A stretch of DNA of 64,000 nucleotides from an uncultured Bacteroidota bacterium (GCA_963779225.1 CAVZWW010000003.1:3445504-3509503), one strand, 5' to 3'; positions 1 to 22,554 are shown, counted from the first letter of the stretch. Numbers and translations: made by a program. The notes: generated by a model not told the origin, from the letters alone.

Positions 1-902
1 CCTGGACGCAGAGGAGACCAGTGGAGGAAAAAACGGGTGTAGTAGTTCAGCCCGACGAAATCACATCCATGGTCACCGTTAGCGTCGATGCGCTCCCGGA
101 CGACTCCCGGAAAACCAAATCGAAACCTGCCATCGGCCAGATACTCCAGAATGGCGTCGTTGAGGTTGCGGTCGGCAATCCGTGCAATGGCAACATCTAA
201 GGGGTTCCAGGCTGAAGCGGGTTCGAAATCAAACATATTCGTCGCAATCCCTACGGCCGGGGTAGGATTGATCGTCTTGCATGCTGCGTAGACCGCCGAG
301 TGTGTACGGAGGAGGTTGCGGAGCACGGCAGCGGCACTTCGCGCGGAATGATGCGCCGGTGGGAATTCTCCCGTGAAATACCCATTCACGGCAAAGACTG
401 CGGGTTCGTTGATGGTGCACCAGAGAGGAACACGGTCTGAGAGCCGTTTATACACGACTCGTGCAAACCGGGCGAACACATCCGGAGAGTCTTCCGAGAG
501 AAATCCACCGCGATTTTCGAACCAGAGGGGATTGGTGAAGTGGTGGAGCGTGATCATCGGGGTAATCCCTGACGCCAGGAGAGCGTCCACCAGGCCCTCA
601 TAGTGCTTCAGAACTTCCCCGTCGAACACCCCCTCCTCTGGTTCGATCTTGCTCCACTCTACCGAAAAGCGGTACGCGTTCAGGCCGATATCCGTCATGA
701 GCCGGATATCCTCCCTGTAGCGTTCCCAGTGTTCGCAGGCTCGCCCCGAACGCTGGCCCCCTGTGATCCGGGGGCGTCCGCCTGCATCCTTCGCGTCCTC
801 GAAGGCAGTCCAGTTGTTCCGCGTGCTCCCGCCTTCCACCTGATGGGAGGACGTGGCAGTCCCCCAGAGAAAGCCTTCTGGATAGATCCGTTTTCTGTTC
901 AA
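1..902 (-). CDS. Glycoside hydrolase family 1 (beta-glucosidase), runs off the left edge of the window
   Basis: Absent from the ORF track (no stop in window). Manual minus-strand translation gives GFLWGTATSSHQVEG, YRFSVEWSKIEP, ITLHHFTNPLWF, WCTINEP (acid/base Glu) and FVGLNYY. An in-frame TGA lies just upstream, so TTG at 902 is the likely start. Confidence 0.9.
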   Translation of the reverse strand, partial: MNRKRIYPEGFLWGTATSSHQVEGGSTRNNWTAFEDAKDAGGRPRITGGQRSGRACEHWERYREDIRLMTDIGLNAYRFSVEWSKIEPEEGVFDGEVLKHYEGLVDALLASGITPMITLHHFTNPLWFENRGGFLSEDSPDVFARFARVVYKRLSDRVPLWCTINEPAVFAVNGYFTGEFPPAHHSARSAAAVLRNLLRTHSAVYAACKTINPTPAVGIATNMFDFEPASAWNPLDVAIARIADRNLNDAILEYLADGRFRFGFPGVVRERIDANGDHGCDFVGLNYYTRFFLHWSPLRP

Positions 903-1077
903 GGCAGCGAAGATTTCATTGCAGCGACGGTCAGACGAACATTCTTGCCAGGTTCAGGCCTACGCGTTTCTCCCCTCTGGAACCGATACCTCGCAAGCCA
1001 ATGCGCATGCATCTCTTGAACTCGTAGCCAATGCCCGTGTGTTGCAGTTTTGTCCCTGTTTTCGAAGGCACAGTGGG

Positions 1078-2379
1078 CTAGAGGTACTTCATCTCAACTG
1101 CTTTCTTTTCCAATTCTTCCCGGAACTCGGGCGCGGCGATATCGATGAGCGCTCTCGCGCGATCTCTAATCCGCTTTCCATAGAGCGAAGCAACTCCATA
1201 TTCAGTAACAATATAACGGACATGATTTCGCGTTGTTACGACACCCCCACCAAGCCGGATAGCTGAGACGATTTTGCTGATCTTCTGCCCCTTGACACTG
1301 GCCGTGGACGGAAGCGCGATGATTGGCACTCCCCCCTTGCTCCTGGAGGCGCCGTAGATAAAGTCCACCTGTCCGCCGACGCCGCTATAGAGTCTGGGTC
1401 CGATGGAATCGGAGCACACCTGCCCGGTCAGGTCGACTTCAATTGCAGAGTTAATGGCCACCATCCTGGCATTCTGGGCGATAATGAACGGATCGTTCAC
1501 GTACTCCGTAGGGTGCATTTCCACGATCGGATTGTCGTTGACAAACTCGTACAGCCGCTTTGTGCCGAGCATAAAACCGGCGATGATCTTCCCCGGATGG
1601 AGCGTCTTAGCTTCCCCATCCACCACTCCCCGTTCCACAAGATTGATGATCCCGTCCGAGAACATTTCCGTGTGGACGCCGAGATGCTTATGATTCGTGA
1701 GCTGATGGAGCACGGCATCCGGAATCCCTCCGATACCCATCTGGAGCGTGGCACCGTCCGGGATCAGTCCGGCGATATGTTTTGCGATCTCCCGGGCGGT
1801 TTCTGAGGGATCTCCCATGGGCGTTTCCGGCAGCACATAGTCCACGGGAACGATATGGCTGATTTTTGAGACGTGGATGAACGCGTCTCCGAGGGTCCTG
1901 GGCATATTAGGATTCACTTCAGCAATCACGAGCCTGGCGCTTTGTGCAGCTGTCTTTGTGACGCCCACCTCGACTCCAAAAGAGCAGAAACCATGCTCAT
2001 CCGGAGGGCTGACATGGATCAGCGCGACATCAAGGGGAAGGTTTCCAAACTTGAACAGGCCCGGGATCTCGCTCAGAAAGCACGGGGTGAAGTCGGCCCG
2101 GCCTTCGTTGACCGCCTGCCGGACATTATCGCTTATGAAGAGCGTATTGACGCGGATATGCCCCTCCATTTCCGGTGCAACGTAGTCGGCGCTCCCTATC
2201 GTGAGCACCTGGACCACCTCAACATCCTTCAGCTCGTTTGCCCGCTTCACAAATGCTCCCATGACCTTCTGTGGCACGGAGCAGTTTCCCGTAAGGAATA
2301 CTCTCTGTCCCGAATTGATTACCTGTACCGCCTGTTCGGGGGTGACGGTGCGTTCCCGGAAGATATCCATCCAGCTCAT
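1078..2379 (-). CDS. Acetyl-CoA hydrolase/transferase family (4-hydroxybutyrate CoA-transferase-like)
   Basis: ATLQMGIGGIPDAV, HLGVHTEMFSDG, EVDLTGQVCSDSIG, SGVGGQVDF and GGVVTTRNHVRYIVTEYGVA motifs. Confidence 0.92.
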   Translation of the reverse strand: MSWMDIFRERTVTPEQAVQVINSGQRVFLTGNCSVPQKVMGAFVKRANELKDVEVVQVLTIGSADYVAPEMEGHIRVNTLFISDNVRQAVNEGRADFTPCFLSEIPGLFKFGNLPLDVALIHVSPPDEHGFCSFGVEVGVTKTAAQSARLVIAEVNPNMPRTLGDAFIHVSKISHIVPVDYVLPETPMGDPSETAREIAKHIAGLIPDGATLQMGIGGIPDAVLHQLTNHKHLGVHTEMFSDGIINLVERGVVDGEAKTLHPGKIIAGFMLGTKRLYEFVNDNPIVEMHPTEYVNDPFIIAQNARMVAINSAIEVDLTGQVCSDSIGPRLYSGVGGQVDFIYGASRSKGGVPIIALPSTASVKGQKISKIVSAIRLGGGVVTTRNHVRYIVTEYGVASLYGKRIRDRARALIDIAAPEFREELEKKAVEMKYL

Positions 2380-3485
2380 GACGATCTCTCCTTTTCGCCA
2401 TGATGCGCGGCAAGCACCGGGTTCACAATCTTGCCCCCCAGGGTGGCAACACCACGCTTGAGGGTAGAGCTCTCTTTCAGGGCCACTTCCAGTCCGACCC
2501 GGGCGATCTCCTGGATAAACGGCCAGGCGGCATTATTGAAGGCATGTGTGGCTGTTCGCGCAACGACAGAGGTCATGTTGGGGACGCAGTAGTGGAGGAT
2601 ATTCTCCTCCACGAAGGTCGGATCGCGGTGCGTTGTGAGGCGGCTCGTCTCCACGCATCCGCCCTGGTCGATGGAGATATCCAGTATGATCGAACGGGGT
2701 TTCATCAACTTCACCATATCGCGGGTAATGATGATGGGCGACCGTGTACCGGGAACCAGCACCGCGCCGACGAGCACATCGGCGAATTTGATCACCTTCC
2801 GGATATTGAAGGGATGGGAAACCATGGTCACAAGGCGTCCGGCCATGCCGTGCATCTCATCCAGGTATTGCAGGCGTGCAAGATCGTGATCCAGCACATA
2901 CACGCTGGCGCCTTCACGGAGAAACGCGTGGGCGGCGGCGGTCCCGAACGTTCCCGCTCCGATAATCACCACTTCCGCCGGGGGAACACCGGGAACACCA
3001 CCCAGGAGGATTCCTTTCCCGCCGTGGTGATTCTGCAGCATGGTTGCTGCGATCTGTGGTGCCATGCGGCCTGCAGCCTGACTTAACGGGATCTGAACAG
3101 GAAGCAAGCCGTGATCGTCCTGCATCAACTCGTAGGCGATGGCGGTGATCTTCTTCTTGAGGAGCATCTGTACTCTTTCGCGCCGCGAGACCGCCAGGTG
3201 CAGAAACCCCATCAACGTACATCCGTCCCGGAGCAGGTCGACTTCTTCCGCGGTGGGTCGGCCCACTTTCAGCACAAGCTCTGAACGGCCGTACAGTTCT
3301 TGCGGAGAATAGACAATTCGTCCGCCCGCGCGTTCATAGTCGAGATCGGGAAATCCGGCTCCCAGTCCGGCGTCCTTTTCGACATAGCATGAGTGGCCGG
3401 AGTGGGTCAGCAGTTCAACGCCCGCGGGCGTCAGCCCCACCCGGAATTCGTCAGCGCGCTGTTCTTTTGGTACGCCGATATCCAT
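2376..3485 (-). CDS. ald: Alanine dehydrogenase-family protein (divergent active site)
   Basis: IGVPKE..EFRV start, GFLHLA, IIGAG Rossmann motif, DISIDQGGCVET and HYCVPNM. The canonical KVKEP motif reads KVGRP. Overlaps the downstream gene by 4 nt. Confidence 0.8.
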   Translation of the reverse strand: MDIGVPKEQRADEFRVGLTPAGVELLTHSGHSCYVEKDAGLGAGFPDLDYERAGGRIVYSPQELYGRSELVLKVGRPTAEEVDLLRDGCTLMGFLHLAVSRRERVQMLLKKKITAIAYELMQDDHGLLPVQIPLSQAAGRMAPQIAATMLQNHHGGKGILLGGVPGVPPAEVVIIGAGTFGTAAAHAFLREGASVYVLDHDLARLQYLDEMHGMAGRLVTMVSHPFNIRKVIKFADVLVGAVLVPGTRSPIIITRDMVKLMKPRSIILDISIDQGGCVETSRLTTHRDPTFVEENILHYCVPNMTSVVARTATHAFNNAAWPFIQEIARVGLEVALKESSTLKRGVATLGGKIVNPVLAAHHGEKERSS

Positions 3486-3540
3486 TGTTCCTCCATAGAC
3501 CGTATGTTAAGCGCGTAAGTTCCGTGCACAGAAAGTGATA

Positions 3541-4605
3541 TTAATACTTCCCTACTGTGCGGGCTGTCTCGTACAATGCAACGACATTCTCCGTGGGTGA
3601 GTTGTCCTGCAGCATATGGGTGGGAGAGAAAGCATACCCTCCCCCGGGCATCATTGTTTCCAGCGTCTCGCGTGCCATAGTCACGGTCTCCGCAACGCTC
3701 CCCCGTGCGACGACACCGGCAGTGGAGATGCATCCGTGAAAGGAAAGCCGTGTGCCGTACGTGCGTTTGAGATATGCGGGCGACATGTCTTTTGCTTCCG
3801 GCTGAAGCGTGTCCACGATCGAAATACCCATCTCCAGGAAATCCTCGTACGCCCAGCTGCTGGATCCGCAGGAGTGCATCATCACCGGGATGCCGAAGCT
3901 CCGGGCGAGGTCCACAAACGGCTGGTGGCGGGGACGGATGTGTTTGCGGAAGAGTGCAAGGCTGATCAGGGGTGCGCGTTGCGTGCCCAGATCCTCGCCC
4001 AGCCAGAGGATGTCGATCTCCCCCTTCGCAGCCTCGAGCGTCCGCTCCAGCATTTTCAGCTGGAGCTCGTTCTTCCGGTCCATGAAGCGGAGGCACGCTT
4101 CTTCGTCGGTCATCAGGTCGACCAGGACCTGCTCCATGCTGCGGATCATGCCTGCGGTATTGATCATGTCGCCGGCGCCCGGGTTGCCTATGAGGAGGCA
4201 GTAGTGGCGGTTGGCTTTGCACTGTGCAGGGATGGCGGCGTAATCATAGTCATCGGGCGAGGGCATCGGCCAGCGTTCCACGTCTTCGAGCGAAGCATCG
4301 CGGAGCGGGAAATCACAGAAGTCCCAGTACCCTCCACTTTCGTGTTCCACCCATTTGGTGCGGATGCCCCAGAGGTCCACCTTGCGGCCGGGTGGAGCTG
4401 TGTGGAGTGGTGGCCCGGTGTAGGCCGGAATGATTTCCACGAAGTCGACGCCCAGGGCCTGGCGGAGTCCCTCATCGTCGTCGGGTCCCAGATTGTAGTG
4501 GGCTTTCAGGCGGCGATCGATTCCCGGGTTGGCCAGGTAGTCGATGGGAACGCGGTCGGGAATCTGGTGGTGAAAAGCCTGTAGGACGCGATCTCGTGAA
4601 GTCAT
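3541..4605 (-). CDS. Uroporphyrinogen decarboxylase (URO-D)/MtaA-CmuA family protein
   Basis: MTSRDRV...PDRVP start, EDLGTQ, MHSCG and YAFSPTHML. Start placed at MTSR (4605), not the longer ORF-track start. Confidence 0.85.
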   Translation of the reverse strand: MTSRDRVLQAFHHQIPDRVPIDYLANPGIDRRLKAHYNLGPDDDEGLRQALGVDFVEIIPAYTGPPLHTAPPGRKVDLWGIRTKWVEHESGGYWDFCDFPLRDASLEDVERWPMPSPDDYDYAAIPAQCKANRHYCLLIGNPGAGDMINTAGMIRSMEQVLVDLMTDEEACLRFMDRKNELQLKMLERTLEAAKGEIDILWLGEDLGTQRAPLISLALFRKHIRPRHQPFVDLARSFGIPVMMHSCGSSSWAYEDFLEMGISIVDTLQPEAKDMSPAYLKRTYGTRLSFHGCISTAGVVARGSVAETVTMARETLETMMPGGGYAFSPTHMLQDNSPTENVVALYETARTVGKY

Positions 4606-4661
4606 GGTACCGGAGGTTTTTGGGGGAACAGGAGTGGTCGAGCTGCTTGCGCAGTGCGCGG

Positions 4662-4900
4662 TGAGACTCAGCCTGAGTCGCACCCTGAGTCGCAGGAGCT
4701 TCCGGGCCCCACTTGGGCCTCAGGCAGCCCAACTTGTGCCCCAGCCAGAGGCTCTGCTTGAGGCACATCGTGAGCCACAAGCTGAGGCACAGTGGCATAT
4801 GTGGCATTTCTTGAGCCTCTGGCGACATATGAGTCTCAGACTGAGCCTCATGAGCCCCGGTGCCACACGCGCCTGCACATGCCTGCGGCACGGCTGAAAT
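4662..4900. repeat. Mosaic intergenic repeat block A (TGAGnCWCA / GTGGCAC modules)
   Basis: Repeated TGAGGCACA, TGAGCCACA, TGAGCCTCA and TGAGTCTCA. CCCAGCCAGAGGCTCTGCTTGAGGCACA is shared with blocks at 6405-6490 and 9113-9315. Confidence 0.8.
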
Positions 4901-5099
4901 TTACTCAAACCCCCCGTGACAATCAAGAAATCGACTTCCCGGTTCTCTCAACAAAAACACATTTGCCGATGGGGATTCCCGAGCCGGCAACGGTGATACG
5001 AATATCATGAACAACCTGAATTAAATGGAGATTCTGGATCAGCAACATGATCAACGCATGCAAAACCTGAAGAAATGGAAGGACACGTTCCGATTTCCC

Positions 5100-5128
5100 T
5101 TGACATTTTCTCACAGCAGTACTACCTT
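5100..5128 (+). promoter_or_regulatory. Sigma70-type promoter
   Basis: TTGACA-N17-TACCTT. The same spacing is kept in copy 2 (TTGACG-N17-TAACTT). Confidence 0.7.
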
Positions 5129-5134
5129 TCCCCC

Positions 5135-5226
5135 ATGCTTACATAGGTCGAATGCGGGCGTGCCCGCGTCAGACCTGGAAGCGCACCTGCTCTTAGATTC
5201 CATCTGCACTCCCTCCTCTCCCGCGG
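5135..5226 (+). ncRNA. Candidate structured 5' leader RNA, copy 1
   Basis: Begins 7 nt after the -10 box. Hairpin AGGTC-GA-ATGCGGG-loop-CCCGCGT-CA-GACCT (5145-5176) has stems conserved and loop changed between copies, followed by a CU-rich tract. No known RNA family recognised. Confidence 0.4.
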
Positions 5227-5495
5227 ATGTCAGTCTCCGCATTCTCTTTTGAGATCCTCAAGAACGGACTCAGACGCAAAGGCTCGATGGGAGACTCGGT
5301 GAGCCGCTGATCATTATCGTCTTTCCCGACACCACCTGGTCCCGCCTCAAGCCAAAATCTCTGACACCATCCTTGCGTACGCGGTGCGCTCACATATCCC
5401 GCCCGCTTCGGCGAGCGTCGCTCGTGGAGAGTCTGACAGTCTGCACCACCTGATGTGAGTCCATGTGGCAAGGACAATTTCACCCGGGAGAAAGG

Positions 5496-6230
5496 ATGAC
5501 AGCTATGATCGGTAAACGAGTTCTTCAGCATGTTCGAAGGCTGGCACTTGTTGCGTTGGTGCTCGCCGGGTTCGCGAGTGTTCAAAGTCAGCCAAAGGCC
5601 GGCGATTGGAAGGCGACAGCAGGTTTTGGAGAGTTCACGCTTACGGTTTCCGAGGGAGGGGCAAGCATCACGAAAATCGCTTTCATGTTCATGGCATTCA
5701 ATTGTGGAGGTGTGGGCATTACGTTGTCCGGCGGAATAACCGTTATGAGCTCCTGGAGTATCACGAATAATCAGTTTACGATCACCAAGAATCTGAACAC
5801 AAGTTTCTCGGGGACGCCGTGGCCGCTCACCATAGCGGGCACGTTTAGCGCATCGGGAGATCAGGTATCAGGCACCTGGAATGCAAATGTGGCCGGATCA
5901 CCCTGTTCCGGAAGCTGGGGCCCGGTCGGCCAGGTAGTGTCTGTAGAAGAAATCCGTGACATTCCCGCGCGGTATGCGTTGGGGCAAAACTACCCCAACC
6001 CGTTCAATCCCTCGACGATGATCTGTTACGAGTTGCCACGGAAGTCGGCTGTCCAACTGACCGTCTTCAACAACCTCGGTCAGCAGGTGGCTCAGCTCGC
6101 CAATGGCGACATGGAGGCGGGGTATCATGAGGTGCTGTTTGACGGAAGCGATCTGTCAAGCGGCGTGTACTTCTACCGCCTGAGGGCCGGGGATTTTGTA
6201 GAGACGCGCCAGTTGGTGCTTATGCGATAG
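5496..6230 (+). CDS. Secreted protein with T9SS C-terminal sorting domain; uncharacterised beta-rich cargo domain
   Basis: Signal-peptide-like N-terminus (RRLALVALVLAGFASVQS) and [13 protein letters not shown]...SSGVYFYRL...QLVLMR C-terminus. Start at 5496 or 5505. Confidence 0.85.
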   Translation: MTAMIGKRVLQHVRRLALVALVLAGFASVQSQPKAGDWKATAGFGEFTLTVSEGGASITKIAFMFMAFNCGGVGITLSGGITVMSSWSITNNQFTITKNLNTSFSGTPWPLTIAGTFSASGDQVSGTWNANVAGSPCSGSWGPVGQVVSVEEIRDIPARYALGQNYPNPFNPSTMICYELPRKSAVQLTVFNNLGQQVAQLANGDMEAGYHEVLFDGSDLSSGVYFYRLRAGDFVETRQLVLMR

Positions 6231-6270
6231 GAACATTTCGCTCCCCCGCTGCCGTACACACGGTGAAGAA

Positions 6271-6310
6271 AAAGGGCTGTCCCAGAAGTCCAGGGACGCC
6301 CTTTCTTTTT
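6271..6310 (+). terminator. Rho-independent terminator-like hairpin, copy 1
   Basis: AAAGGGCTGTCCC-loop-GGGACGCCCTTT followed by CTTTTT, ~40 nt after the stop codon. Confidence 0.75.
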
Positions 6311-6313
6311 GAA

Positions 6314-6403
6314 ATCGTGTAGAAGAAGGCCGTGGAGAAGAAAAAGCACAAGGTCGGGGAGAAGGCGCAGGACTTATTCAGGCATGGTGAAGATGTAGAG
6401 AAG
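6314..6403 (+). pseudogene. Possible internal relic of an IS1182-family transposase
   Basis: Reads IV*KKAVEKKKHKVGEKAQDLFRHGEDVE. With TAG read as former TGG this resembles the FVWKKSVEK...EE..YG..D segment recalled for IS1182 transposases. No start codon and no catalytic DDE region. Confidence 0.35.
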
Positions 6404-6404
6404 T

Positions 6405-6490
6405 GTGCCCCAGCCAGAGGCTCTGCTTGAGGCACAAGTTGAGGCACATCGTGAGCCACAAGCTGAGGCACTGAGCCTCATGAGCTTTGT
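6405..6490. repeat. Mosaic intergenic repeat block B
   Basis: TGAGGCACA-agt-TGAGGCACA-tcg-TGAGCCACA-agc-TGAGGCAC-TGAGCCTCA-TGAGC, with 12-bp periodicity. Confidence 0.8.
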
Positions 6491-6643
6491 GAGTAAATCG
6501 AAATGAAAGTGACACCTTCAGGCAATTCGATTTTGGCACCATCAAGACATTGCATAACACTGGTCCGCCGGGGATTGGAAAACGCAATCTCAAGGTGCAT
6601 TTCTATCGCATTCAAACAGGAGAATTATCGAAAGGACAAAGCA

Positions 6644-7078
6644 ATGGACCCGCGACCGCTCATGCTGTATGTACTCATTGCGCTCCTCGCCACTCAATGC
6701 GATACGATGGTTGCTCAAATCCCTACCGAAAGATTGAAAGTGAAATTGACGGATCAATGGGTTGAGCTCGTCGGAGAAGACTCCATGGCCAGTTTCAAAC
6801 TGACGGATTCATCGATCGTCAACGAGGATGCATTTCCCATCGTTAAGGTTGCCGCAGTTCCTCCCGTGGGCCGGTCTGTCCGTCAGTTTACGCCGATTAT
6901 AGTCAATGCGGTCGTCACGAAGCGGGGAAATGTCAGGAGGGCATGGATCGTCTCGAGCGACAGTCCATATTTCAACAAGTCAGTGCTAAAGGCTGTCGTT
7001 CAATGGAAATACCAGCCACGGATCTTCAATGGTGTTCCCGTAGACACGCTCGTCACAATCGAAATTCCCGTGCGGTGA
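6644..7078 (+). CDS. Exported protein with a TonB C-terminal domain
   Basis: Hydrophobic N-terminus; VNAVVTKRGNVRRAWIV...SVLKAVVQWKYQP matches the TonB_C pattern. Confidence 0.75.
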   Translation: MDPRPLMLYVLIALLATQCDTMVAQIPTERLKVKLTDQWVELVGEDSMASFKLTDSSIVNEDAFPIVKVAAVPPVGRSVRQFTPIIVNAVVTKRGNVRRAWIVSSDSPYFNKSVLKAVVQWKYQPRIFNGVPVDTLVTIEIPVR

Positions 7079-7326
7079 AACGATGTCACTGTAATCTTCA
7101 AAGCCGTCGTGCTGATAAGTTGATAGCTTCAGAAGATCACCTCGACCCCCCGTGACAATCAAGAAATCGACTTCTCGACTCTCTTAGGAAGAACCCACTT
7201 CCCGATCGGGGTTCCCGCCCTGGGAACGGTGGTATGAGCATTCTGAAAAAGACGGAGATTCTGAATCAGCAACGCGATCGGTACATGCAGAACCTGAAGA
7301 AATGGAAGGACACTTTCCAATTTCCC

Positions 7327-7355
7327 TTGACGTTTTCGAACAGCAGTACTAACTT
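7327..7355 (+). promoter_or_regulatory. Sigma70-type promoter (paralogue of 5100-5128)
   Basis: TTGACG-N17-TAACTT. Confidence 0.65.
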
Positions 7356-7361
7356 TCCTTT

Positions 7362-7453
7362 ATGCTTACATAGGTCGAATGCGGGGCCTCCCGCGTCAGA
7401 CCTGGAAGCGCACCTGCTGTTTGTCTCCATCTGCACTCCCTCCTCTCCCGCGG
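7362..7453 (+). ncRNA. Candidate structured 5' leader RNA, copy 2
   Basis: ATGCTTACATAGGTCGAATGCGGG-gcct-CCCGCGTCAGACCTGGAAGCGCACCTGC; hairpin at 7372-7403. Confidence 0.4.
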
Positions 7454-7595
7454 GTTTCAACTTCCACATTCAAAAAATGTGATTCGGTGCAAGAGTCAGC
7501 GAGCCGCCCAGTGTTTCCGTCCTACGCCACGACCCACTGAGCTCCGTTCTCTGGCCAGTTATCTCCCATAGCATCTGACTTGGAAGGAAGACAAG

Positions 7596-8853
7596 ATGAG
7601 AACTCAAACCATCTGTCTCGCACTCGTCCTCGTTCTGGTTTGTCCCTATGCGTCCGGTCAATGGGTGAAAACCGCCGGACCTTATGACGGCTCTATAAGA
7701 TGCTTTGCCGTTTCGGGCACGAATCTCTTTGCCGGGACTTCTGGGGGCGTCATTCTTTCCACCAACAACGGCACAAGCTGGACAGCAGTGAACACCGGCT
7801 TGACGCGCGCTGATGTCCGTGCTCTTGCCGTCTCCGGCACGAATGTCTTTGCCGGGACCGGGAATCAGAGCTATGGCCCCGTCTCAGATGGTCACGGTGT
7901 CTTTCGTTCCACCGACAACGGCACAAGCTGGACGGCGGTCAATGAAGGGTTGCCGAAGGATACATATGACACTACACGATATCTTTCCATCCAATGCTTT
8001 GCATCGAGCGGCACGAGTCTCTTTGCCGGAACTTGGGACGGCGTCTTCCTTTCCACCGACAACGGCACAAGCTGGACAGCAGTCAACACCGGCTTGACGA
8101 ATACTCAAGTCTTTTCTCTTGCCGTTTCGGGCACGAAACTCTTTGCCGGGACTCAGGATGGCGTCTTTCTTTCCACCAACAACGGCACAAGCTGGATTCG
8201 TCTTTTCATCAGCGGCTTGCCGCACAGTTCCTTCTGGTCTCTTGCCATTTCGGGCACGAATCTCTTTGCCGGGACTGACGGCTCCGGCGTCTTTCTTTCC
8301 ACCGATAGCGGCACAAGCTGGACTCAAGTCTTCGTCAGCTTGGGAGTCCATGCTCTTGCCGTTTCGGGCACGAATCTCTTTGTCGGGGATAATTACCGCG
8401 GCGTCTTTCTTTACACCAACAACATCGCAAGGAAGACTCCAGTCAACACCGGCTTGACGAACATTCACGTCTCGTCTCTTGCCGTTTCAGGCACAAATCT
8501 CTTTGCGGGAACCGAGGGCGGTGGCGTCTGGAGTCGACCGTTATCGGAGATGATCACCTCAGTCGAACCCGTCACGAGCCAATTGCCGCACGAGTTCTCG
8601 CTTCGTCAGAACTACCCCAACCCCTTCAATCCCTCGACGACGATCTGTTACGAGTTACCAAGGAAGTCGGCTGTCCGGCTGACCGTCTTCAACAACCTCG
8701 GCCAGCAGGTGGCTCAGCTCGCCAATGGCGACATGGAGGCAGGATATCATGAGGTGCAGTTTGACGGAAGCGAGTCTGTCAAGCGGCGTGTACTTCTATC
8801 GGTTGAGGGCCGGTGATTTTGTGGAGACGCGCAAGTTGGTGCTTATCCGATAG
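7596..8853 (+). CDS. Secreted BNR/Asp-box repeat beta-propeller protein with T9SS sorting domain (+1 frameshift at ~8774)
   Basis: Signal peptide and about seven ~40-aa repeats ([25 protein letters not shown]), then [13 protein letters not shown]. Removing one base at ~8774 restores [29 protein letters not shown] ending at 8853, colinear with the paralogue. Confidence 0.85.
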
Positions 8854-8896
8854 GGCCGTTTGGCCGCCCCCCCACTGCTGTACACACGGCGAAGAG

Positions 8897-8937
8897 AAGG
8901 GGCTGTCCCAGAAGTCCGGGGACGGCCCTTTCTTTTT
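8897..8937 (+). terminator. Rho-independent terminator-like hairpin, copy 2
   Basis: GGGCTGTCCC/GGGACGGCCC stem followed by TTTCTTTTT. Confidence 0.75.
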
Positions 8938-8940
8938 GAA

Positions 8941-9111
8941 ATCGTGTAGAAGAAGGCCGTGGAGAAGAAAAAGCACAAGGTCGGGGAGAAGGCGCAGGAC
9001 TTATTGAGGCATCGTGAAGATGTAGAAAAGGAAGAGACCAACGCCTACGGAGAGAAGGACATGGGGGACGAGCGTGCGGTGAAGCCGGAGTTGATCCGCC
9101 GGAAGACTTAG
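8941..9111 (+). pseudogene. Possible internal relic of an IS1182-family transposase (longer copy)
   Basis: IV*KKAVEKKKHKVGEKAQDLLRHREDVEKEETNAYGEKDMGDE...; family assignment is from motif memory only. Confidence 0.4.
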
Positions 9112-9112
9112 A

Positions 9113-9340
9113 CTGAGGACTTCCGGGCCCCACTTGAGCCTCAGCCAGGGCACATGTGGCACAGTGGCACTTCTTGAGTCTCTGGCGACATGTAAGCACG
9201 AGCCCCACTTGAGCCCCAGCCAGAGGCTCTGCTTGAGGCACAAGTTGAGGCACTGAGCCTCCTGAGCCCTGGCGCCACACGCGCCTGAACGTGCCTGCGG
9301 CACGGCTGAAATCTACTCACCCCCCGTGACATTCAAGAAA
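9113..9340. repeat. Mosaic repeat block C plus a third stub of the leader-start motif
   Basis: Shares CTTCCGGGCCCCACTTG, CCCAGCCAGAGGCTCTGCTTGAGGCACA and GCCACACGCGCCTG..C..GCCTGCGGCACGGCTGAAAT.TACTCA with block A. Ends in CCCCCCGTGACATTCAAGAAA. Confidence 0.85.
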
Positions 9341-9401
9341 CTGACGGTCGGTAAACCTGGACAGTCGGTGAACCTGGATAGTCTTCTATATGTAAAGGCT
9401 G

Positions 9402-10013
9402 TTACTTCCAAGTCGGAGGTCGAAAGAGTTTCCTACCTCCACCAATATTGATTACGTCGTCCAGTTGACATGTTTTCAACTGCTTCTCTCGGATACGAGT
9501 ATAAGAATCGCAAACTTCTATCAGCTGTTCGGCCTTCCGACCGATAGGAATAGCTACGCGGACTTGTTTGGAGGGATAAAGAGTTTTAACCGCCTGGATC
9601 GCCGGGATCTGATCGCTATCCCCGGACACTATCACTGAAATGTCGTGAAGATCTTGAATGGCAAAACGGAAAAGGTGGATTGCGATATTAACGTCTGTTT
9701 GCTTTTCTTCTCTGCCCTTGTACTGCTTCCCGCAAACAGAACAAAGCCTGTCGCGTTGCTTGAACTCACCATATACTGTTCGCACTCCCTTTAACTCATT
9801 TGCCTGAATGAGCAGTTTGTGTCTGACCACTTTGTCCGGTTTCCACGTCTGCAGTGCTGTGAAGTAATACACTCCCACGATTTTGTCTGTCTTGGGGACA
9901 AGAATGCGAGCCAGCTTGTCAAAATCCATCCATTTATATTTGTGATACGCGGGCTCATCGTCTAACGCATGGTAGAGATTGAATCCGTCAACAAAGACTA
10001 TTACCTTCGACAT
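9402..10013 (-). CDS. NYN (LabA/DUF88, PIN-like fold) domain ribonuclease with a CxxC insertion
   Basis: VFVDGFNLYH, YYFTA, CSVC, EEKQTDVNIA and SGDSD motifs. GGAGG lies 4 nt before ATG 10013. Visibly lower GC than its flanks. Confidence 0.9.
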   Translation of the reverse strand: MSKVIVFVDGFNLYHALDDEPAYHKYKWMDFDKLARILVPKTDKIVGVYYFTALQTWKPDKVVRHKLLIQANELKGVRTVYGEFKQRDRLCSVCGKQYKGREEKQTDVNIAIHLFRFAIQDLHDISVIVSGDSDQIPAIQAVKTLYPSKQVRVAIPIGRKAEQLIEVCDSYTRIREKQLKTCQLDDVINIGGGRKLFRPPTWK

Positions 10014-10022
10014 GTACCCTCC

Positions 10023-10053
10023 AAAAAAAACCCGAGTCCACAGGGATCTCGGG
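10023..10053 (-). terminator. Terminator-like hairpin in the NYN leader, directly before the RBS
   Basis: Minus strand CCCGAG-ATCCCTGTGGA-CTCGGG-TTTTTTTT-GGAGGGTAC-ATG. Confidence 0.7.
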
Positions 10054-10091
10054 GCCAATGAGACACGACATCTCAAAGGGATGACATTGCC

Positions 10092-10120
10092 AATATAAGC
10101 CCCCCCGACCGGAAATGCAA
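10092..10120 (-). promoter_or_regulatory. Sigma70-type promoter for the NYN locus
   Basis: Minus strand TTGCAT-N17-TATATT. Confidence 0.65.
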
Positions 10121-10242
10121 ATTGCTGGAATACTATCGTGCGAAAAATCGACCGAAGAACCCGTTGGACAGCCCGATAATTCATTGTTTTTCAGCATTTT
10201 ATGCGAGCATCATTTTCGCCATCGTTTTTGTCAGAAATGTCA

Positions 10243-10362
10243 TCACTTCCGACGAGCCTGAATCCATCGGAGCATCGGAGCCCACACTTTGGTCGGAGCA
10301 TTCGTTGCATAGAAGAGATCGATGTGGCCAAATTCTGTCTCAATAGGCGCGGAAATACTCAC
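10243..10362 (-). pseudogene. Possible C-terminal relic of an alpha/beta-hydrolase
   Basis: Reads ...ETEFGHIDLFYATNAPTKVWAPMLRWIQARRK*, like the catalytic-His tail of alpha/beta hydrolases. No upstream body is visible. Confidence 0.3.
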
Positions 10363-10672
10363 AGTGAACCCCCTGCACGATTGGTACAAGGGGTTCTGTG
10401 CCGGCCTACCGGCGTTGCGGATTGTGAAGCCAGTTTAAGGGTAAGCCATTCGATAGGACTTGTCGGGCGAAATCTGACCAAGCGAAATCTGACCACAATA
10501 TTCAGGCTACAAGACTCTGATACCGGAAGAACCCGACCGGCAAAATATGACGATATTGTTCGCATTAAAACACCGTACACCTCGGGTAACTGCTGCAAAC
10601 TTGCGGCTTGTGTGGCGTTTGGGTATCTTACCGCTGCCTTCCCTCTCTTTCCCATAGCTCAAGGAGTCACCC

Positions 10673-11593
10673 ATGAAAGTCCTGATCACCGACGGCATCT
10701 CGCCCGAAGGTGCCAAAATCCTCACAGACGCAGGCCTCACCGTCCACCAGCAGAAGTTGACCCCGGAAGAACTCCTCACCCGGATCGGCGACTACGAGGC
10801 AATTATCGTACGTTCCGCCACGAAGGTCACCAAAGACGTCATCGAAGCCGGGAAGAATCTCAAGGTGGTGGCGCGCGGAGGCGTCGGACTCGACAATATC
10901 GATACTGTTGCCGCCGCAGCGAAGCACATCCTGGTGCTTAACACCCCCGGAGCATCCGCAATCTCCGTCGCGGAACTCACACTGGCGCACATGCTTGCCG
11001 TCAGCCGTTTCCTTCACGTCAGCTCCATGGACATGCGCCAGGGAAAGTGGCCGAAGAAGGAGTACTCGGCAGGAATCGAACTCTACAAGAAGACTCTTGG
11101 CATCATCGGACTGGGAAGCATCGGCAAAGAAGTCGCACGCCGCGCTCTCGGGTTTGGCATGCACGTTCTGGCATACGACCCTCCCTTCTCCCCGATGGAT
11201 TTCATCGTCGAGATCACCACCAAAGAACGCCTGCTTGCTCAGGCGGATTACATCACGCTCCATCTTCCATTCGACAAGAAAGCGGGACCGACGGTCACCA
11301 AAGTTGATTTCGACGCCATGAAGAAAGGTGTTGTGCTGGTGAATTGCGCACGCGGCGGGATTGTTGATCAGAAAGCACTCCTGGAGGCGCTGAACAGCGG
11401 CAAAGTGGCCGCCGCCGCACTCGATGTCTTCGAGCACGAACCTCCCACCGAGGACGAGCGCGCGCTTATCAACCATCCCCACGTCAGCGTCTCACCGCAT
11501 ATCGGAGGGTCCACCGTGGAGGCGCAGGATCGGGTCGGGGCCGAGATCGCCATCAAAGTCGTGAAAGCCCTTGCACCGGACAAAATGCGGTAA
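10673..11593 (+). CDS. serA: D-3-phosphoglycerate dehydrogenase / D-2-hydroxyacid dehydrogenase (short form, no ACT domain)
   Basis: IIVRSATKV, RGGVGLDNID, GIIGLGSIG, VNCARGGIV, LDVFEHEP and SPHIGGST. Confidence 0.85.
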   Translation: MKVLITDGISPEGAKILTDAGLTVHQQKLTPEELLTRIGDYEAIIVRSATKVTKDVIEAGKNLKVVARGGVGLDNIDTVAAAAKHILVLNTPGASAISVAELTLAHMLAVSRFLHVSSMDMRQGKWPKKEYSAGIELYKKTLGIIGLGSIGKEVARRALGFGMHVLAYDPPFSPMDFIVEITTKERLLAQADYITLHLPFDKKAGPTVTKVDFDAMKKGVVLVNCARGGIVDQKALLEALNSGKVAAAALDVFEHEPPTEDERALINHPHVSVSPHIGGSTVEAQDRVGAEIAIKVVKALAPDKMR

Positions 11594-11605
11594 AAGGAGA
11601 ATATC

Positions 11606-12523
11606 ATGGAACGCCAGGAAGCCGAAGCAATTCTTACACTCAGCCTGATGGCGGCGTTTGCAGACGGAACGATGGCCGAAGCGGAACGTCAACGCGTCAA
11701 GGAAATCATGAACAACCTCGGCTTCGAATCGTCTCCGGCTCTTCTGCAACGGGTGGTGATGAAACAGGTCACCCTCGAAGAAACCGCGCGGCTCCTGGCG
11801 TCTCCTGAATCACGATCCCTCGCGTATGAGATGGCCGTCTACGTGTGCGAAGCCGACGGGGCCACCAACAGCGAGGAGCGGCGCTTTCTGGAAAACCTCC
11901 AGACGAACCTCGATATTGCCGCCCCTGCAGCTGCCGCCGTGCAGCGCGGGTCCGCGGCGGTAGTAACCACTCCGGCCACGGTGGAACAGGCTCCGCTCGC
12001 GGTCGAACCGAAAGAAGGCGAGCTGGATCCGATGATCCTGAAATACGCAATCCTTACAGGCGCGCTGGAACTGCTGCCGCAATCCCTGGCCACGATGGCC
12101 ATCATTCCCCTTCAGATCCGTATGGTCTACCGGGTCGGCGTGGCACACGGAGTGTCACTCGACAGGGGACACATAACAGAGTTCCTTGCGACAGTCGGTG
12201 TGGGGATGACGGCACAGATGGTGGAGGGAATGGCCCGGCGGGTGCTGGGTCGACTGGGGCGCACTCTTGGAGGCGGTCTGTTCGGGATGGCCACCAGCGC
12301 GATAACAGGTTCGGCGCTCACATTCGGAACGACGTACGCGCTCGGACAGGTCGCAAAAACGTACTATGCGGGCGGCCGCACACTCACGATGGATCAACTC
12401 AAAGCCCTCTTCCAGCGGCTCCTCGACGAAGGCAAGACCCTTTTTGCGCGCCACCAGGGCGAAGTGCAGTCGCGGGCACAAACGTTGAATCTTGCAGAAG
12501 TGCTCCCGCTGCTGAAACAATAA
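11606..12523 (+). CDS. TerB-like N-terminal domain fused to a DUF697/YcjF-like C-terminal domain
   Basis: MAAFADG..AEAER and VCEADG..NSEERRFL (TerB-like); LAIIPLQIRMVYRVG..HG and TYALGQVA..YY (DUF697-like). Confidence 0.7.
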   Translation: MERQEAEAILTLSLMAAFADGTMAEAERQRVKEIMNNLGFESSPALLQRVVMKQVTLEETARLLASPESRSLAYEMAVYVCEADGATNSEERRFLENLQTNLDIAAPAAAAVQRGSAAVVTTPATVEQAPLAVEPKEGELDPMILKYAILTGALELLPQSLATMAIIPLQIRMVYRVGVAHGVSLDRGHITEFLATVGVGMTAQMVEGMARRVLGRLGRTLGGGLFGMATSAITGSALTFGTTYALGQVAKTYYAGGRTLTMDQLKALFQRLLDEGKTLFARHQGEVQSRAQTLNLAEVLPLLKQ

Positions 12524-12720
12524 CGCTCGATCTTCGGGCGGTCGGTGGGGGGGCGGGCTGTTCGGCGCGGCTGCCAATTCTCCATCAGGCGCCACGCTCG
12601 ACTTCTACTCTCGCGTACCGCTGAAACGATCTCGCCTGACCGCACCGTCGGTCTGAACCCGTTGCCGATGTACCATCCCCCCCTAAATGTTCACGCGGCT
12701 CATTGCCGGAGAACTCGCCT

Positions 12721-13683
12721 TCACAACGCTCCCGCCCAACGCACTTTCTCCATCACCTGCGCACTCTGTCCGCCTTCGTGCCGGTTGTAGGGCCACACAC
12801 GAATTTCCTTCTCTCCCCCGAAGTGGTTATACGCGGCAAACACCGTACGCGGCGGACAGACATCATCCATCAACCCTACTGAAAAGAGCCCGCGGCATTT
12901 TGCCCGCGCCGCGAAGTTGATCCCGTCGAAATAAGAAAGCGTCTCAAAAACCTGTTCCACTTTGTCTCTGTGGATCTTGCAGAACTGGACAATCTCCGCA
13001 TAGGGATCCCGGTCCGTGATCTCCGTTGCCGTGCGATAGTGACAGAGGAACGGCACGTCCGGCATCACGGCTATCACCCGCTCATCCAGTGCGGACACCG
13101 CAAGGGCAATTCCACCTCCCTGACTCCCGCCGGTGAGCACCACACGGTCGGGATCGACGGCGGGAAACATCCTCGCAGTTTCGACTGCACGGACGGCGTC
13201 TGCGAACACGCGTCTGTAGTAATATGTGTCGGGCGAGAGAACACCCCGGGTCATAAACCCGGGGACCTGTGGATTCCCCCCGGTCTCTTCGGGATCAGGC
13301 GTATCTCCCCGTTGCCAGACACTTCCCTGTCCGCGCGTATCCATCACAAAGTGTGCGTAGCCGCAGCTGCTCCATGTGAGCCAGTCGATCGGGTATCCCC
13401 TCCCTCCGCCATAGCCGATATACTCCACCACACACGGCAGACGACCTTCGCGCCGCGAGGGTACAAGAAGCCAGCCTTTGATGGAGTTTCCCGCGAAACC
13501 CTGAAAGGTCACATCGAAGGCATCAACGGTTTTCAGTCCGGCTTCCACCGGGACGAATTGCGGAGTGAGCGGAATTCGCCGGGTATCGTCCAGCGTCCGT
13601 TTCCAGAATGCTTCAAAGTCTCCCGGTTCCACACGCGCGGGACGGTAGACGCGAAGCTCGTCAAGAGGAAGGTCAAAGAGCAT
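12721..13683 (-). CDS. Acetyl xylan esterase / cephalosporin-C deacetylase (CE7)
   Basis: [23 protein letters not shown] nucleophile, GLMDDVCPP and NRHEGG. Confidence 0.93.
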
Positions 13684-13963
13684 GCGGGAATCCTATGGCA
13701 TCTGTGAACATGTGTCGGGGGGATGAGTATATCTCGATCTCTGACGAATGCAGGCCTCTATGGCTGCAGATGGCCGACGCCCTGACGCGACAACGGCGAG
13801 ACACGCTCCACTCGGCCCGGCGTTGTGAAATGTGATTGCGAACGGGGTTTTCCGCAGACATCCGGTGTCGCCGCAACCGGCTCACCCGAAGGCATCGGCG
13901 GTCCGGACCAGTCGCCACGGCGGCAAGCCCCTTCGGAACGTCCCGGCTTTGAGATCACGGGCA

Positions 13964-20081: not shown

Positions 20082-20345
20082 AGCACATGTGGCTCCGTGG
20101 CACGTGTGGCTCCGTGGCACATGTGGATCTGGGCCTCCTGTGGCACATGTGGCTCCGTGGCACATGTGGCTCCCTCGCTCGCTTGAGGCTTAAGGCGCTG
20201 ACAAGGCACTGCGAGCCTCAGGGTGAGTCTCAAGTTGAGGCACAGCCTGAAGCACACGCTGAGTGAGCTCAGGCTGTATCACGTGTGTCACTTGTGACAC
20301 AAGATCCCACCGTGGCACGTCTGGCTCCCTCGCTCGAGATCCAGG
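20082..20345. repeat. Mosaic repeat block D with a 17-bp tandem unit GGCACATGTGGCTCCGT
   Basis: Four to five tandem or near-tandem copies at 20082-20172, followed by TGAGCCTCA-, TGAGTCTCA- and TGAGGCACA-type modules. Confidence 0.8.
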
Positions 20346-20574: not shown

Positions 20575-22554
20575 ATGCGCGCCCGGTTTCACGGAAATAT
20601 GATTCGGATGACGGCAGCCTTCGGCTTGATGATCTCCGCCGCAGGTTTGTCTGCGTCAGCGCAGCCGGTGGAATCTTTCCAGTACACGGCCGGTGCAAAG
20701 GTAGATGGAGCCGGCAGACCCCGGGCAATGTATGGGTTGACCGCCCGCGTCGGCGATGGCAACGCCGAGACTTCCGCCCGCACGTTTCTTGAGCGCCATG
20801 CCTCCACGCTCGGCCTGACCGATGCAGCCGGCACCCTCACGGCTGCGAGCACGATTACCGTCCCGGGCGGTTCCCACGTCCGGTTTACGCAGAATGTCAA
20901 CGGTATCCCCATCTACGGAGCGGATGTTGTGGTCAGTCTGAATGTCCGCAACGAAGTCACCATGCTGGTGAACAACTCGCTGGCCGCCGTCCAGCCGCCC
21001 CCGGATGCTTCATTTGACCAGGCCCATGCACTGATGCTGGCACGCGAGCACCTGAAGACCGGCCCGGTTGCGATCGGGAATCCAGACGCCGCCACATTGA
21101 TGGTCTACCGCACACCGGACGGCACCACACGCCTGACCTATCGTGTCACCCTGTCCCGCGAAGAGCCGGCCGGTGACTGGGAGCTGTTCGTTGATGCAGA
21201 ATCCGGAGCCATCCTTCGTGCCCGCGATATGTTTGTGGATTTCCATGAAGGCGAACGCGTTCAGGGGCAGGGCTACGTGTATCTCACCGAACCCTTGAGC
21301 GCCGCGCGCCAGCCTTATGGCACTCCCGGTTTCGCGGACAACAACGACAGTGATTCCGACTCGTTGACCTCGCACCGGTCGCTCGTCACCCTTGACTCTC
21401 TGACATTCGCAAACGGTGTGTTCAAACTCGCCGGCCCATATTGCACCATCACCGACATTGAATCCCCCTTCGACTCCGTCTACACTGCGGCAACACCCGA
21501 TGGTTTTCAGTACACCCGCAGTCAGGCCGGCTTCGAGGCCGTCAACGCGTACTACCACGCCACCGAATCGTACAAGCGGCTGCAGGAACTCGGGTTCAGT
21601 TCGACCCGCCTCGCGCAGTTGCGCATCGACCCTCATGGATTCCAGGGTGCTGACAACTCGCACTACAGTCCGTCCGGGAACTGGATCTCGTTTGGAACCG
21701 GTGGTGTTGACGACGCGGAAGACGCCGATGTTATCTGGCATGAATACGCGCACGCGATTCAGTACGCATTTGTCCCCACCTGGGGTGGCGGCGAAATGGC
21801 CGCACTCGGTGAAGGATATTCCGACTACTGGGCATCCTCCCATTCACGTTCGACACACGAATGGACACGCGGCGAGACACCGTACGATTGGGTATTCCGG
21901 TGGGACGGTCATAACGAATTCTGGTCCGGCCGGCGGGTGAACGACAGCCGCACCTACCCGTTCAACAGTCTTACCGTGCATTCCGCCGGGCAGATCTGGT
22001 CATCAGCCCTTATGTCGGTATGGAATGAACTGGGCCGGGACGTGACAGACCGCCTCGTCATCAAGAGTCTCTTCTACCTTGGTTCGGGAGCCACGGCAAC
22101 CGATGCAGCGATGGCGGTATTGCAGGCGGACAGAGATCTGTATAGCGGCGAGCATCTTGCCACCCTGATCTACTGGCTCGGAACGGTCAAGCGGTTTATC
22201 GACCCGTCGGTCATCAACGACCCTTCAACGGATGTGGCGGACCTCTCGACCGCACCGGCAACATTCGCCCTCGATCAGAACTATCCGAACCCGTTCAACC
22301 CCACCACCACGCTCCGGTTCTCGCTCGCGGAAGGATCAACGGTGCGGCTGAAAGTGTTCAACGTCATCGGTCAGGAAGTCGGTACGCTGGCTGAAGGCCG
22401 GTACGCGGCCGGTGCTCATTCGATCGCCTGGGATGCAACGAATGCGGCGGGTGCAGCGGTTGGAACAAGTGTCTACATCGCCCGGCTCGACATCACCCCG
22501 GCGTCGGGCGGCGAGACCATGACGTTTGTACGGAAGATGGTATTACTTCGCTAA
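20575..22554 (+). CDS. Secreted zinc metallopeptidase (M36/M4-like; FTP/PepSY propeptide) with T9SS sorting domain
   Basis: HVRFTQ.VNGIPIYG, WELFVDAESG, VIWHEYAH zincin motif, GEGYSDY and [13 protein letters not shown]. Confidence 0.88.
   Translation: MRARFHGNMIRMTAAFGLMISAAGLSASAQPVESFQYTAGAKVDGAGRPRAMYGLTARVGDGNAETSARTFLERHASTLGLTDAAGTLTAASTITVPGGSHVRFTQNVNGIPIYGADVVVSLNVRNEVTMLVNNSLAAVQPPPDASFDQAHALMLAREHLKTGPVAIGNPDAATLMVYRTPDGTTRLTYRVTLSREEPAGDWELFVDAESGAILRARDMFVDFHEGERVQGQGYVYLTEPLSAARQPYGTPGFADNNDSDSDSLTSHRSLVTLDSLTFANGVFKLAGPYCTITDIESPFDSVYTAATPDGFQYTRSQAGFEAVNAYYHATESYKRLQELGFSSTRLAQLRIDPHGFQGADNSHYSPSGNWISFGTGGVDDAEDADVIWHEYAHAIQYAFVPTWGGGEMAALGEGYSDYWASSHSRSTHEWTRGETPYDWVFRWDGHNEFWSGRRVNDSRTYPFNSLTVHSAGQIWSSALMSVWNELGRDVTDRLVIKSLFYLGSGATATDAAMAVLQADRDLYSGEHLATLIYWLGTVKRFIDPSVINDPSTDVADLSTAPATFALDQNYPNPFNPTTTLRFSLAEGSTVRLKVFNVIGQEVGTLAEGRYAAGAHSIAWDATNAAGAAVGTSVYIARLDITPASGGETMTFVRKMVLLR

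Follow-up and report, generated by a model that had tools for sequence, protein, structure and literature searches.

Shared flanks around two unrelated type IX secretion cargo genes as probable traces of an old local duplication and recombination

A locus with two neighbouring genes for cargos of the type IX secretion system (T9SS) was analysed in a 64,000-nt stretch of DNA from an uncultured Bacteroidota bacterium (GCA_963779225.1, CAVZWW010000003.1:3445504-3509503); the whole stretch is referred to below as the window. Each gene encodes a predicted signal peptide, a cargo and a C-terminal sorting domain (CTD), and each lies in a module (modules 1 and 2) whose outer parts are repeated in the other module. 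An earlier note on this DNA had proposed a cassette array in which cargos are exchanged by recombination between constant flanks. This interpretation was supported only in part: the locus is best described as containing a chimeric T9SS gene, probably derived from an old local duplication and recombination, and not as a demonstrated cargo-swapping device. The coordinates of the features are collected in Table 1.

Conserved flanks enclose unrelated cargos

Both pairs of conserved flanks were confirmed by self-BLASTN. The upstream blocks (4909-5244 and 7145-7471) were 81.0% identical over 336 nt (E 3e-89), and the downstream blocks (5985-6403 and 8607-9030) were 91.5% identical over 424 nt (E 3e-171). 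The sequence CCCCCCGTGACAWTCAAGAAA occurred exactly three times, at 4910, 7146 and 9320, with 0.01 occurrences expected. The cargos between the flanks were unrelated, as had been suggested: no similarity was detected by BLASTP (E 0.21), and the structure model of cargo 1 (predicted local distance difference test score 73) contained eight beta strands and an Ig-like tail and no propeller, as opposed to the BNR propeller of module 2. The tail of this model matched the solved T9SS CTDs 8qb1 and 8gl8_D, and its cargo part gave only weak matches, to avidin-like barrels. The N-termini of both products were hydrophobic as judged by eye, and a helix was modelled at residues 5-25 of cargo 1. The enclosure of unrelated cargos by two repeat pairs is real.

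Alignment of the downstream blocks showed that the high-identity tract extends from QNYPNPFNP through the stop codon and the terminator hairpin to a purine-rich 106-nt block (97% identity), and that in module 1 it ends at the onset of a block resembling repetitive extragenic palindromic (REP) sequences. The shared tract is real; it begins within the CTD and not at the linker. The two CTDs (CTD1 and CTD2) were 92.7% identical at the nucleotide level, close to the 90% estimated earlier by eye, as compared with 55-75% in the set of 13 CTDs that served as background; three further CTD genes of the window were 60-75% identical to them (the tail of 20575-22554 was left out of this comparison). The trailers that follow the stop codons were 92.5% identical overall. 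CTD identity above the family background that continues into non-coding flanks indicates duplication or conversion. The terminators noted in both tails were also found, as a GC-rich hairpin with a T-run after each stop codon (6274-6310 and 8899-8937; segments of 85-89 nt, -28 and -45 kcal/mol, z -2.2 and -4.3). Neither a fold signal nor an Rfam match was obtained for the purine-rich block (6298-6403 and 8925-9030). A possible 50-aa open reading frame (ORF) lies at 8959-9111 in trailer 2 and is truncated in module 1.

According to pairwise alignment, the breakpoints between common and unrelated sequence fall at the end of the leader core (described below) and at the start of the CTD, both of which are conserved across the lineage. 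The order of elements is REP-like block 0, unit 1, truncated REP-like block 1, an insertion with a TonB_C gene, unit 2, REP-like block 2, a 27-nt start of a third unit and an insertion with an NYN gene.

The claim of a constant CTD tail holds for the copies as such, but the frame of the gene 2 CTD is broken by an additional G at 8774. The gene 1 CTD scored 33.1 bits with Por_Secre_tail (PF18962; Pfam) against a cut-off of 27, and the gene 2 CTD as assembled, split by the frameshift, scored 16.7 bits. The ORF stops at 8816 as annotated and at 8853 after repair of the frame; the repaired translation was 94% identical to CTD1. Because split or frameshifted CTDs are frequent in loci from related metagenome-assembled genomes (MAGs; L001, L004, L011 and L014), the additional G may be an assembly error; it represents either recent pseudogenisation or a long-read indel error. 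That the whole repeat was mis-joined or duplicated during long-read assembly, which would agree with the frameshift and with its frequency in relatives, is extremely improbable: the copies differ by 8-20% with substitutions of a coding type (dN/dS 0.10), each copy adjoins its own gene, the two genes being different and independently conserved, and both lie on one 3.75-Mb contig.

The BNR gene carries a sorting domain of its neighbour's clade

Cargo and CTD of gene 2 had discordant phylogenies: the cargo grouped with the BNR family and the CTD with the cargo-1 clade. CTD2 shared 75-79% amino acid identity with the CTDs of cargo-1 orthologues, whereas its identity to BNR-family CTDs was at most 74% (median 53%). 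CTD1 and CTD2 were each approximately 75% identical to the cargo-1 CTD of locus L048, which represents the nearest relative, and both shared its signature ELPxKSAVxLT..LGQQVxQLxNGDME. The protein search with the CTD was saturated and did not return the window's own protein, so the absence of matches above 79% is no evidence. Apparently, the BNR gene is a chimera whose sorting domain was derived from the cargo-1 clade.

The architecture of gene 1 is fixed in relatives. All 14 homologues of cargo 1 (237-251 aa) had a C-terminal sorting domain, namely Por_Secre_tail in 13 of them and FlgD_ig only in the most distant one. The gene order is cargo 1, AAA_14/DUF4143 gene (minus strand) and 2-Hacid_dh in L048, and AlaDH, URO-D, cargo 1, 860 nt and 2-Hacid_dh in the P0127 contig. 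Since cargo 1 is syntenic in these two relatives, module 1 is the ancestral occupant, and the locus is an ordinary chromosomal site of URO-D (minus strand), a cargo-1 T9SS gene and 2-Hacid_dh (both plus strand). The BLASTN match to L048 covered 5222-6235, that is, the 5' untranslated region (UTR) and the gene, at 79% identity. The L048 sequence begins within the 3'-terminal part of the leader core and has the cargo-1 UTR in common with the window; therefore, the junction of leader and cargo 1 is ancestral. The leader-UTR-signal peptide junction of the BNR gene is likewise common to the leader-bearing BNR genes of L006, L044 and L045, and the homology of UTR and signal peptide indicates that this junction is ancestral too.

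Given these fixed combinations of cargo and CTD in relatives and the synteny of cargo 1 in two genomes, the suggestion that cargos are freely exchanged was not borne out. The protein collection, which included the same 3.75-Mb contig, yielded no close paralogue of the BNR cargo that could have served as donor (amino acid identity of 62% at most), and the donor was therefore lost or external.

L048 contains a single unit only, and its homology to the window resumes at 10597; its housekeeping genes were 89% identical to those of the window at the nucleotide level (synonymous divergence, dS, 0.44-0.46). Neither L048 nor the P0127 contig has a counterpart of the TonB_C gene, and trailer 1 is missing after the L048 orthologue. 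The region 6404-10596, which comprises REP-like block 1, the TonB_C gene, module 2, REP-like block 2 and the NYN gene, is lineage-specific DNA in a variable spot, and the intergenic spot downstream of cargo 1 gathers accessory DNA.

Age of the event and a possible mechanism

Comparison of CTD1 and CTD2 gave a proportion of synonymous differences of 0.234, a dS of 0.28 and a dN/dS of 0.10. Because this dS is below the species-level values to L048 (0.44-0.59), the event is younger than the L048 split. Neutral divergence of both flanks amounted to 15-23% (mismatches: private upstream segment 22.6%, trailer A 15%), and the equal divergence of CTD synonymous sites and non-coding flanks points to one event and one age for both flanks. 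The event is old, and both tails have been subject to purifying selection since then. Flanks of unequal age, which would imply a recent conversion of the downstream block, were rejected, as the CTD synonymous divergence (0.23) matched that of the non-coding flanks.

It is rather probable that the shared flanks reflect one old local duplication with recombination that provided an inserted gene with its neighbour's flanks, no dedicated cargo swapping having been demonstrated. A tandem copy would have arisen of the resident unit, which consists of the 27-nt motif, the private upstream segment, promoter and leader, cargo 1, the CTD, the terminator with trailer and a REP-like block. The simplest route would be unequal crossing-over involving the REP-like blocks on either side of the unit, and a stub of a third unit would have been left at 9319-9345. 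In the second copy, the interior from the end of the leader core to the start of the CTD would have been replaced by the corresponding part of a BNR/sortilin gene with its own UTR, signal peptide and propeller. Alternatively, the BNR gene may have landed at this site and its flanks may then have been overwritten by those of the neighbour. The crossovers may have taken place in the sole stretches common to such genes, i.e., the leader core and QNYPNPFNP at the beginning of the CTD, and the product would be a BNR cargo with the neighbour's promoter region, sorting tail and terminator. The segments with the TonB_C and NYN genes would be later insertions. Both the REP-mediated duplication and the order of events are presumed.

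Several points weigh against this reconstruction. With two copies only, duplication followed by replacement is indistinguishable from insertion followed by flank conversion. The 27-nt motif (27/27) and block B of the trailer (103/106) are conserved far beyond the neutral level, and selection or later conversion was at work there. Without an extant BNR donor, replacement by a paralogue requires that the donor was lost or that the sequence was imported. The CTD2 frameshift could mean that the chimera is now dead, but an error of long-read assembly would explain it equally well. Finally, further copies of the private flanks may be present elsewhere in the 3.75-Mb contig, since the search covered the 64-kb window and 49 loci.

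The upstream block contains a promoter-leader of a dispersed family

The upstream block is composite. Its 5' part of approximately 215 nt (4909-5122) matched only the other module, with no significant match upstream of other leader copies, and the private parts of the flanks were not found in the 49 other loci. Between the modules, the segment 4936-5099 was 77% identical to 7172-7326, and a value of 81.5% was obtained for the private upstream part. A coding function of the block was rejected (codon-position differences 7/12/13, synonymous to nonsynonymous 7:17), as was similarity of an ORF in the block to the micro-ORF MNELQEFENDVW of relatives, for which no alignment was obtained. Operator-like palindromes, TGGAAGGACAC(G/T)TTCC, are located just upstream of the -35 element at 5077-5093 and 7303-7319, and the upstream regions of another leader subfamily (L006-L015) carry the operator-like palindrome GTAGGAAAATTCCTAC.

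The 3' half of the block consists of a sigma70-like promoter and a leader of approximately 115 nt. An exact-pattern scan gave 13 leader matches in seven Ignavibacteriota/'Bacteroidetes' MAGs, six of them in one genome, and the leader was also present on 31 further metagenome contigs. With a covariance model (R1), to which copy 1 of the leader core scored 133 bits, 49 leader copies were recovered, 41 of them distinct; within the window, only the two known ones were detected. By BLASTN, three copies of the last ~120 nt of the block were found beside CTD genes on one relative's contig. The family similarity runs with indels past 5244 and 7471. In the alignment, 54 of 133 columns were at least 90% conserved, and tracts of 17 and 15 nt were near-invariant. 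A TTGACA/CAGACA-17-TATATT promoter stood at a fixed distance from the leader in ~33 of 39 distinct copies, the -10 element ending 39-42 nt before CAGACC, or 47-49 nt where the hairpin has insertions. The 5' hairpin folded in ~38 of 40 variants despite differing apices and 5' strands; the covariation check revealed no double-sided changes with 96% of cells paired, the columns barely varying. A second helix, GGAAGCGCA/TGCACTCC, was rejected because its loop is deleted in four natural variants. Rfam 15 gave no match at the gathering score in the 64 kb, and its matches to leader and trailer were at chance level only (E <=5).

The genes downstream of the leader were on the same strand without exception. 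Among the assessable copies, ~20/31 (~60%) preceded T9SS cargos, many of which were BNR/sortilin proteins, as compared with ~6/60 genes in the window. The remaining copies stood ahead of genes for Ser/Thr kinases with TPR domains, for hybrid histidine kinase/response regulator/AraC sensors, for a CarboxypepD_reg protein, for an alpha/beta hydrolase and for an M2/M3 peptidase. None of the four further CTD genes in the window had the leader. The leader is presumed to be a transcribed regulatory 5' UTR. The promoter-leader forms a widespread, previously undescribed family and is the most novel item of this study. The view of the promoter and leader as a constant cassette flank was not supported: this is a dispersed regulatory element that also stands ahead of non-T9SS genes. 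In L005, an inverted repeat of 274 nt (1242-1514 and 6146-6419, 98%) surrounds ~4.6 kb that include a leader-bearing WD40-CTD gene.

The dispersal of the leader raises another explanation, in which leader, REP-like blocks and terminator with trailer are mobile or re-recruited intergenic modules that landed at the two genes independently, with no copying between the modules. The leader core of module 2 was nearer to that of L013, from a different MAG species (88-97%), than to copy 1 (84-85%); REP-like repeats are dispersed as well, and conserved terminator/trailer families follow many CTD genes of relatives. However, the CTD, the trailer and a stretch of ~215 nt ahead of the promoter are common to the two modules and to nothing else seen, CTD2 belongs to the cargo-1 clade, and the flanks are equally diverged. 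Independent landing is accordingly considered unlikely.

CTD recombination recurs in relatives

Within the cargo-1 family, the phylogenies of cargo and CTD disagreed for P0126, P0128 and P0133. The cargo of P0126 was 86% identical to that of P0128, whereas the CTD was only 60% identical and contained a 13-aa insertion, SAKGGSASGGDGS, in common with the distant P0133. In L001, two genes 9.4 kb apart shared a CTD and a 190-nt trailer (81% identity), the tract beginning exactly at the start of the CTD, while their cargos had 27% amino acid identity. The CTD swap of P0126 and the L001 pair demonstrate that CTD recombination carrying the 3' flank recurs in the lineage.

A conserved family of trailers with a terminator and a micro-ORF was found behind many CTD genes in relatives (L001 2931-3125 and 12353-12535; L030, L031, L015 and L037); it comprises the terminator GGGCTCGGCATTCATCACCGGGCCC, a Shine-Dalgarno-like AGGAG and the micro-ORF MNELQEFENDVWSPG, whose copies differ mainly at third codon positions. 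In addition, L002 (1622-1873) and L003 (1467-1718) contain a complete 83-aa ORF that consists of a CTD without cargo or signal peptide; it lies 81 nt after a GH43-CTD gene, with the same layout in two samples.

These recurrent swaps and CTD/trailer-sharing pairs, the coincidence of the breakpoints with leader core and CTD start, the third-unit stub and the enrichment of the leader ahead of T9SS cargos could be taken as signs of a dedicated array in which promoter/leader and CTD/trailer would act as recombination arms for the routine exchange of cargos, by which the T9SS secretome would be built up. Copied flanks and a non-homologous middle with breakpoints at conserved sequences do stand from the proposed cassette array. 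However, a recombinase was absent among the Pfam-scanned ORFs of 600-13700 (a few ORFs of this span being unscanned), where the neighbours of the modules are metabolic genes and the TonB_C and NYN genes. In the 64 kb, no inverted or att-like sites were present at the unit borders, the 27-nt motif being direct only and without an inverted partner, and no tRNA or tmRNA genes as integration sites and no flank pair beyond the two units and the 27-nt stub were detected. Only one event, an old one (dS 0.28), is seen here, both combinations of cargo and CTD are fixed in relatives, and cargo 1 is syntenic. Genes for kinases, hybrid sensors and hydrolases are preceded by the leader as well, the other CTD genes of the window lack it, and the private flanks occur in none of the 49 loci. 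Such an array is therefore quite improbable. As to recombinational cargo exchange in general, the membership of CTD2 in the neighbour's clade and the recurrence of CTD swaps speak for it, but only one old event can be seen at this locus.

Repeats and inserted genes around the modules

The mosaic repeat blocks reported after both modules were recovered, and a further one (block 0) was found right ahead of module 1, with segments 83-95% identical to 9116-9318 and 6404-6490. Another block of this short-repeat family (GTGGCACATGTGGC, GAGGCAC...) lies at 20100-20340. Copy 1 of the 27-nt motif was identical to copy 2 (27/27) and matched copy 3 at 24/27 positions; 9252-9340 was 90% identical to 4840-4930, and no copy of the motif was found in the 49 related loci. 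Two other statements of the earlier note proved correct, namely the TonB-C gene between the modules and the third start motif (9320) followed by a low-GC NYN gene. The two low-GC insertions with these genes each adjoin a copy of the 27-nt CCCCCCGTGACA motif (7144/7145 and 9345/9346), and this motif may be a marker of an insertion hot spot. The window's four additional CTD genes (Table 1) have neither leader nor trailer.

Table 1. Features of the locus (window coordinates)
Position	Strand	Feature	Basis
4694-4908	.	REP-like mosaic palindromic block 0, right ahead of module 1; self-complementary unit TGTGCCCCAGCCAGAGGCTCTGCTTGAGGCACA	
4909-4935	+	27-nt motif ACCCCCCGTGACAATCAAGAAATCGAC, copy 1; start of duplicated unit	self-comparison
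4936-5099	+	Upstream segment private to the two modules (versus 7172-7326); includes operator-like palindrome TGGAAGGACACGTTCC	
5100-5128	+	Sigma70-like promoter (putative function): TTGACA, 17-nt spacer, TACCTT	
5129-5244	+	Leader core copy 1: 5' hairpin 5145-5176, invariant CAGACCTGGAAGCGCAC, CU-rich CTGCACTCCCTCCTC	
5245-5495	+	Gene-specific 5' UTR of module 1	orthologous to L048 positions 1-249
5496-6230	+	Gene 1: predicted signal peptide, 8-strand beta cargo, T9SS type-A CTD (5985-6227)	Pfam, homologues, structure model
6231-6403	+	Trailer 1, with an intrinsic terminator at 6274-6310 and a purine-rich block (6298-6403, 97% conserved)	
6404-6490	.	REP-like block 1, truncated at both ends	
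6644-7078	+	Small TonB_C-domain gene, GC content at third codon positions 0.56, within inserted segment 6491-7144	Pfam
7145-7471	+	Module 2 upstream block, comprising copy 2 of the motif (7145-7171), the private segment, a promoter (TTGACG-17-TAACTT, 7327-7355) and the leader core (hairpin 7372-7403)	
7472-7595	+	Gene-specific 5' UTR of module 2	homologous to BNR-family UTRs in L006, L044, L045
7596-8853	+	Gene 2: predicted signal peptide, BNR/sortilin propeller, CTD (8607-8850)	Pfam, homologues
8854-9119	+	Trailer 2: terminator 8899-8937, conserved block 8925-9030, extension 9031-9119	
9116-9318	.	REP-like block 2	
9319-9345	+	Motif copy 3; truncated start of third unit, cut by low-GC NYN segment	
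9402-10013	-	NYN-domain gene in 46% GC insertion (9346 to about 10596)	Pfam
5100-5244, 7327-7471		Promoter-plus-leader family; also loci L001, L005-L047	
20575-22554, 28757-31828, 34010-35092 (-), 35260-36222 (-)		Four more T9SS CTD genes	

Comparison with known systems

In Porphyromonas gingivalis, the T9SS substrates encoded by rgpA, kgp and hagA share adhesin and C-terminal regions, and domain rearrangements have been reported (PMC5266723). The likeness to the present locus is that paralogous T9SS cargo genes trade 3' parts including the sorting domain through homologous recombination, with chimeric surface proteins as a result. Here, however, the tract also spans the terminator and trailer together with an upstream block of 335 nt, the cargos have no relationship to each other, and the host is an environmental member of Ignavibacteriota.

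Polymorphic toxin loci, such as cdiA-CT/cdiI of contact-dependent inhibition systems and Rhs tips, use constant sequence as homology for replacement of the variable part and contain orphan modules. Constant homology around a variable part and truncated extra units downstream are found here as well, but the variable part is an N-terminal cargo with its own signal peptide instead of a C-terminal tip, immunity genes and toxin domains are lacking, and each unit has a promoter. The REP sequences and bacterial interspersed mosaic elements of enterobacteria are intergenic palindromes and substrates of tandem duplication. The blocks of this locus resemble them in their imperfect palindromes, mosaic order and position on both sides of duplicated units; however, they belong to an unrelated sequence family, and a role in duplication is suggested by position alone.

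Conserved 5' leaders common to whole regulons are known from riboswitches, T-boxes and the UpxY-dependent leaders of Bacteroides capsule loci. The ~115-nt element is similarly conserved and oriented and stands at a fixed promoter distance ahead of many genes in several species, but it matches no Rfam family, and the genes downstream of it encode secreted, surface and signalling proteins and not one pathway. In expression-site switching (Mycoplasma vsa, Bacteroides shufflons), shared 5' sequence precedes alternative surface-protein genes, as it does here. In contrast to those systems, both units at this locus are in direct orientation, each with a promoter, and no recombinase or inverted sites were found.

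Biological significance

The locus would be a dated example of a T9SS substrate that gained the sorting tail, terminator and promoter region of a neighbour and was then kept by selection. Acquisition of tails in this manner may be one concrete way in which large T9SS secretomes diversify. It also calls for caution, since flanks resembling purpose-built cassette arms are partly ordinary regulatory elements present throughout the lineage.

The leader family suggests that secreted and sensory proteins may be under common control in a phylum that has received little study. A wider proposal, which is doubtful at present, is that the promoter-leader defines a new class of cis-regulatory 5' UTRs and, in Ignavibacteriota, a regulon that comprises secreted, surface and signalling proteins, and that together with CTD, terminator and trailer it gives every member the same two homology arms, so that cargo exchange between members is recurrent and selectable. 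If this were true, cargo exchange among leader-bearing genes would re-wire both the set of exported proteins and their expression.

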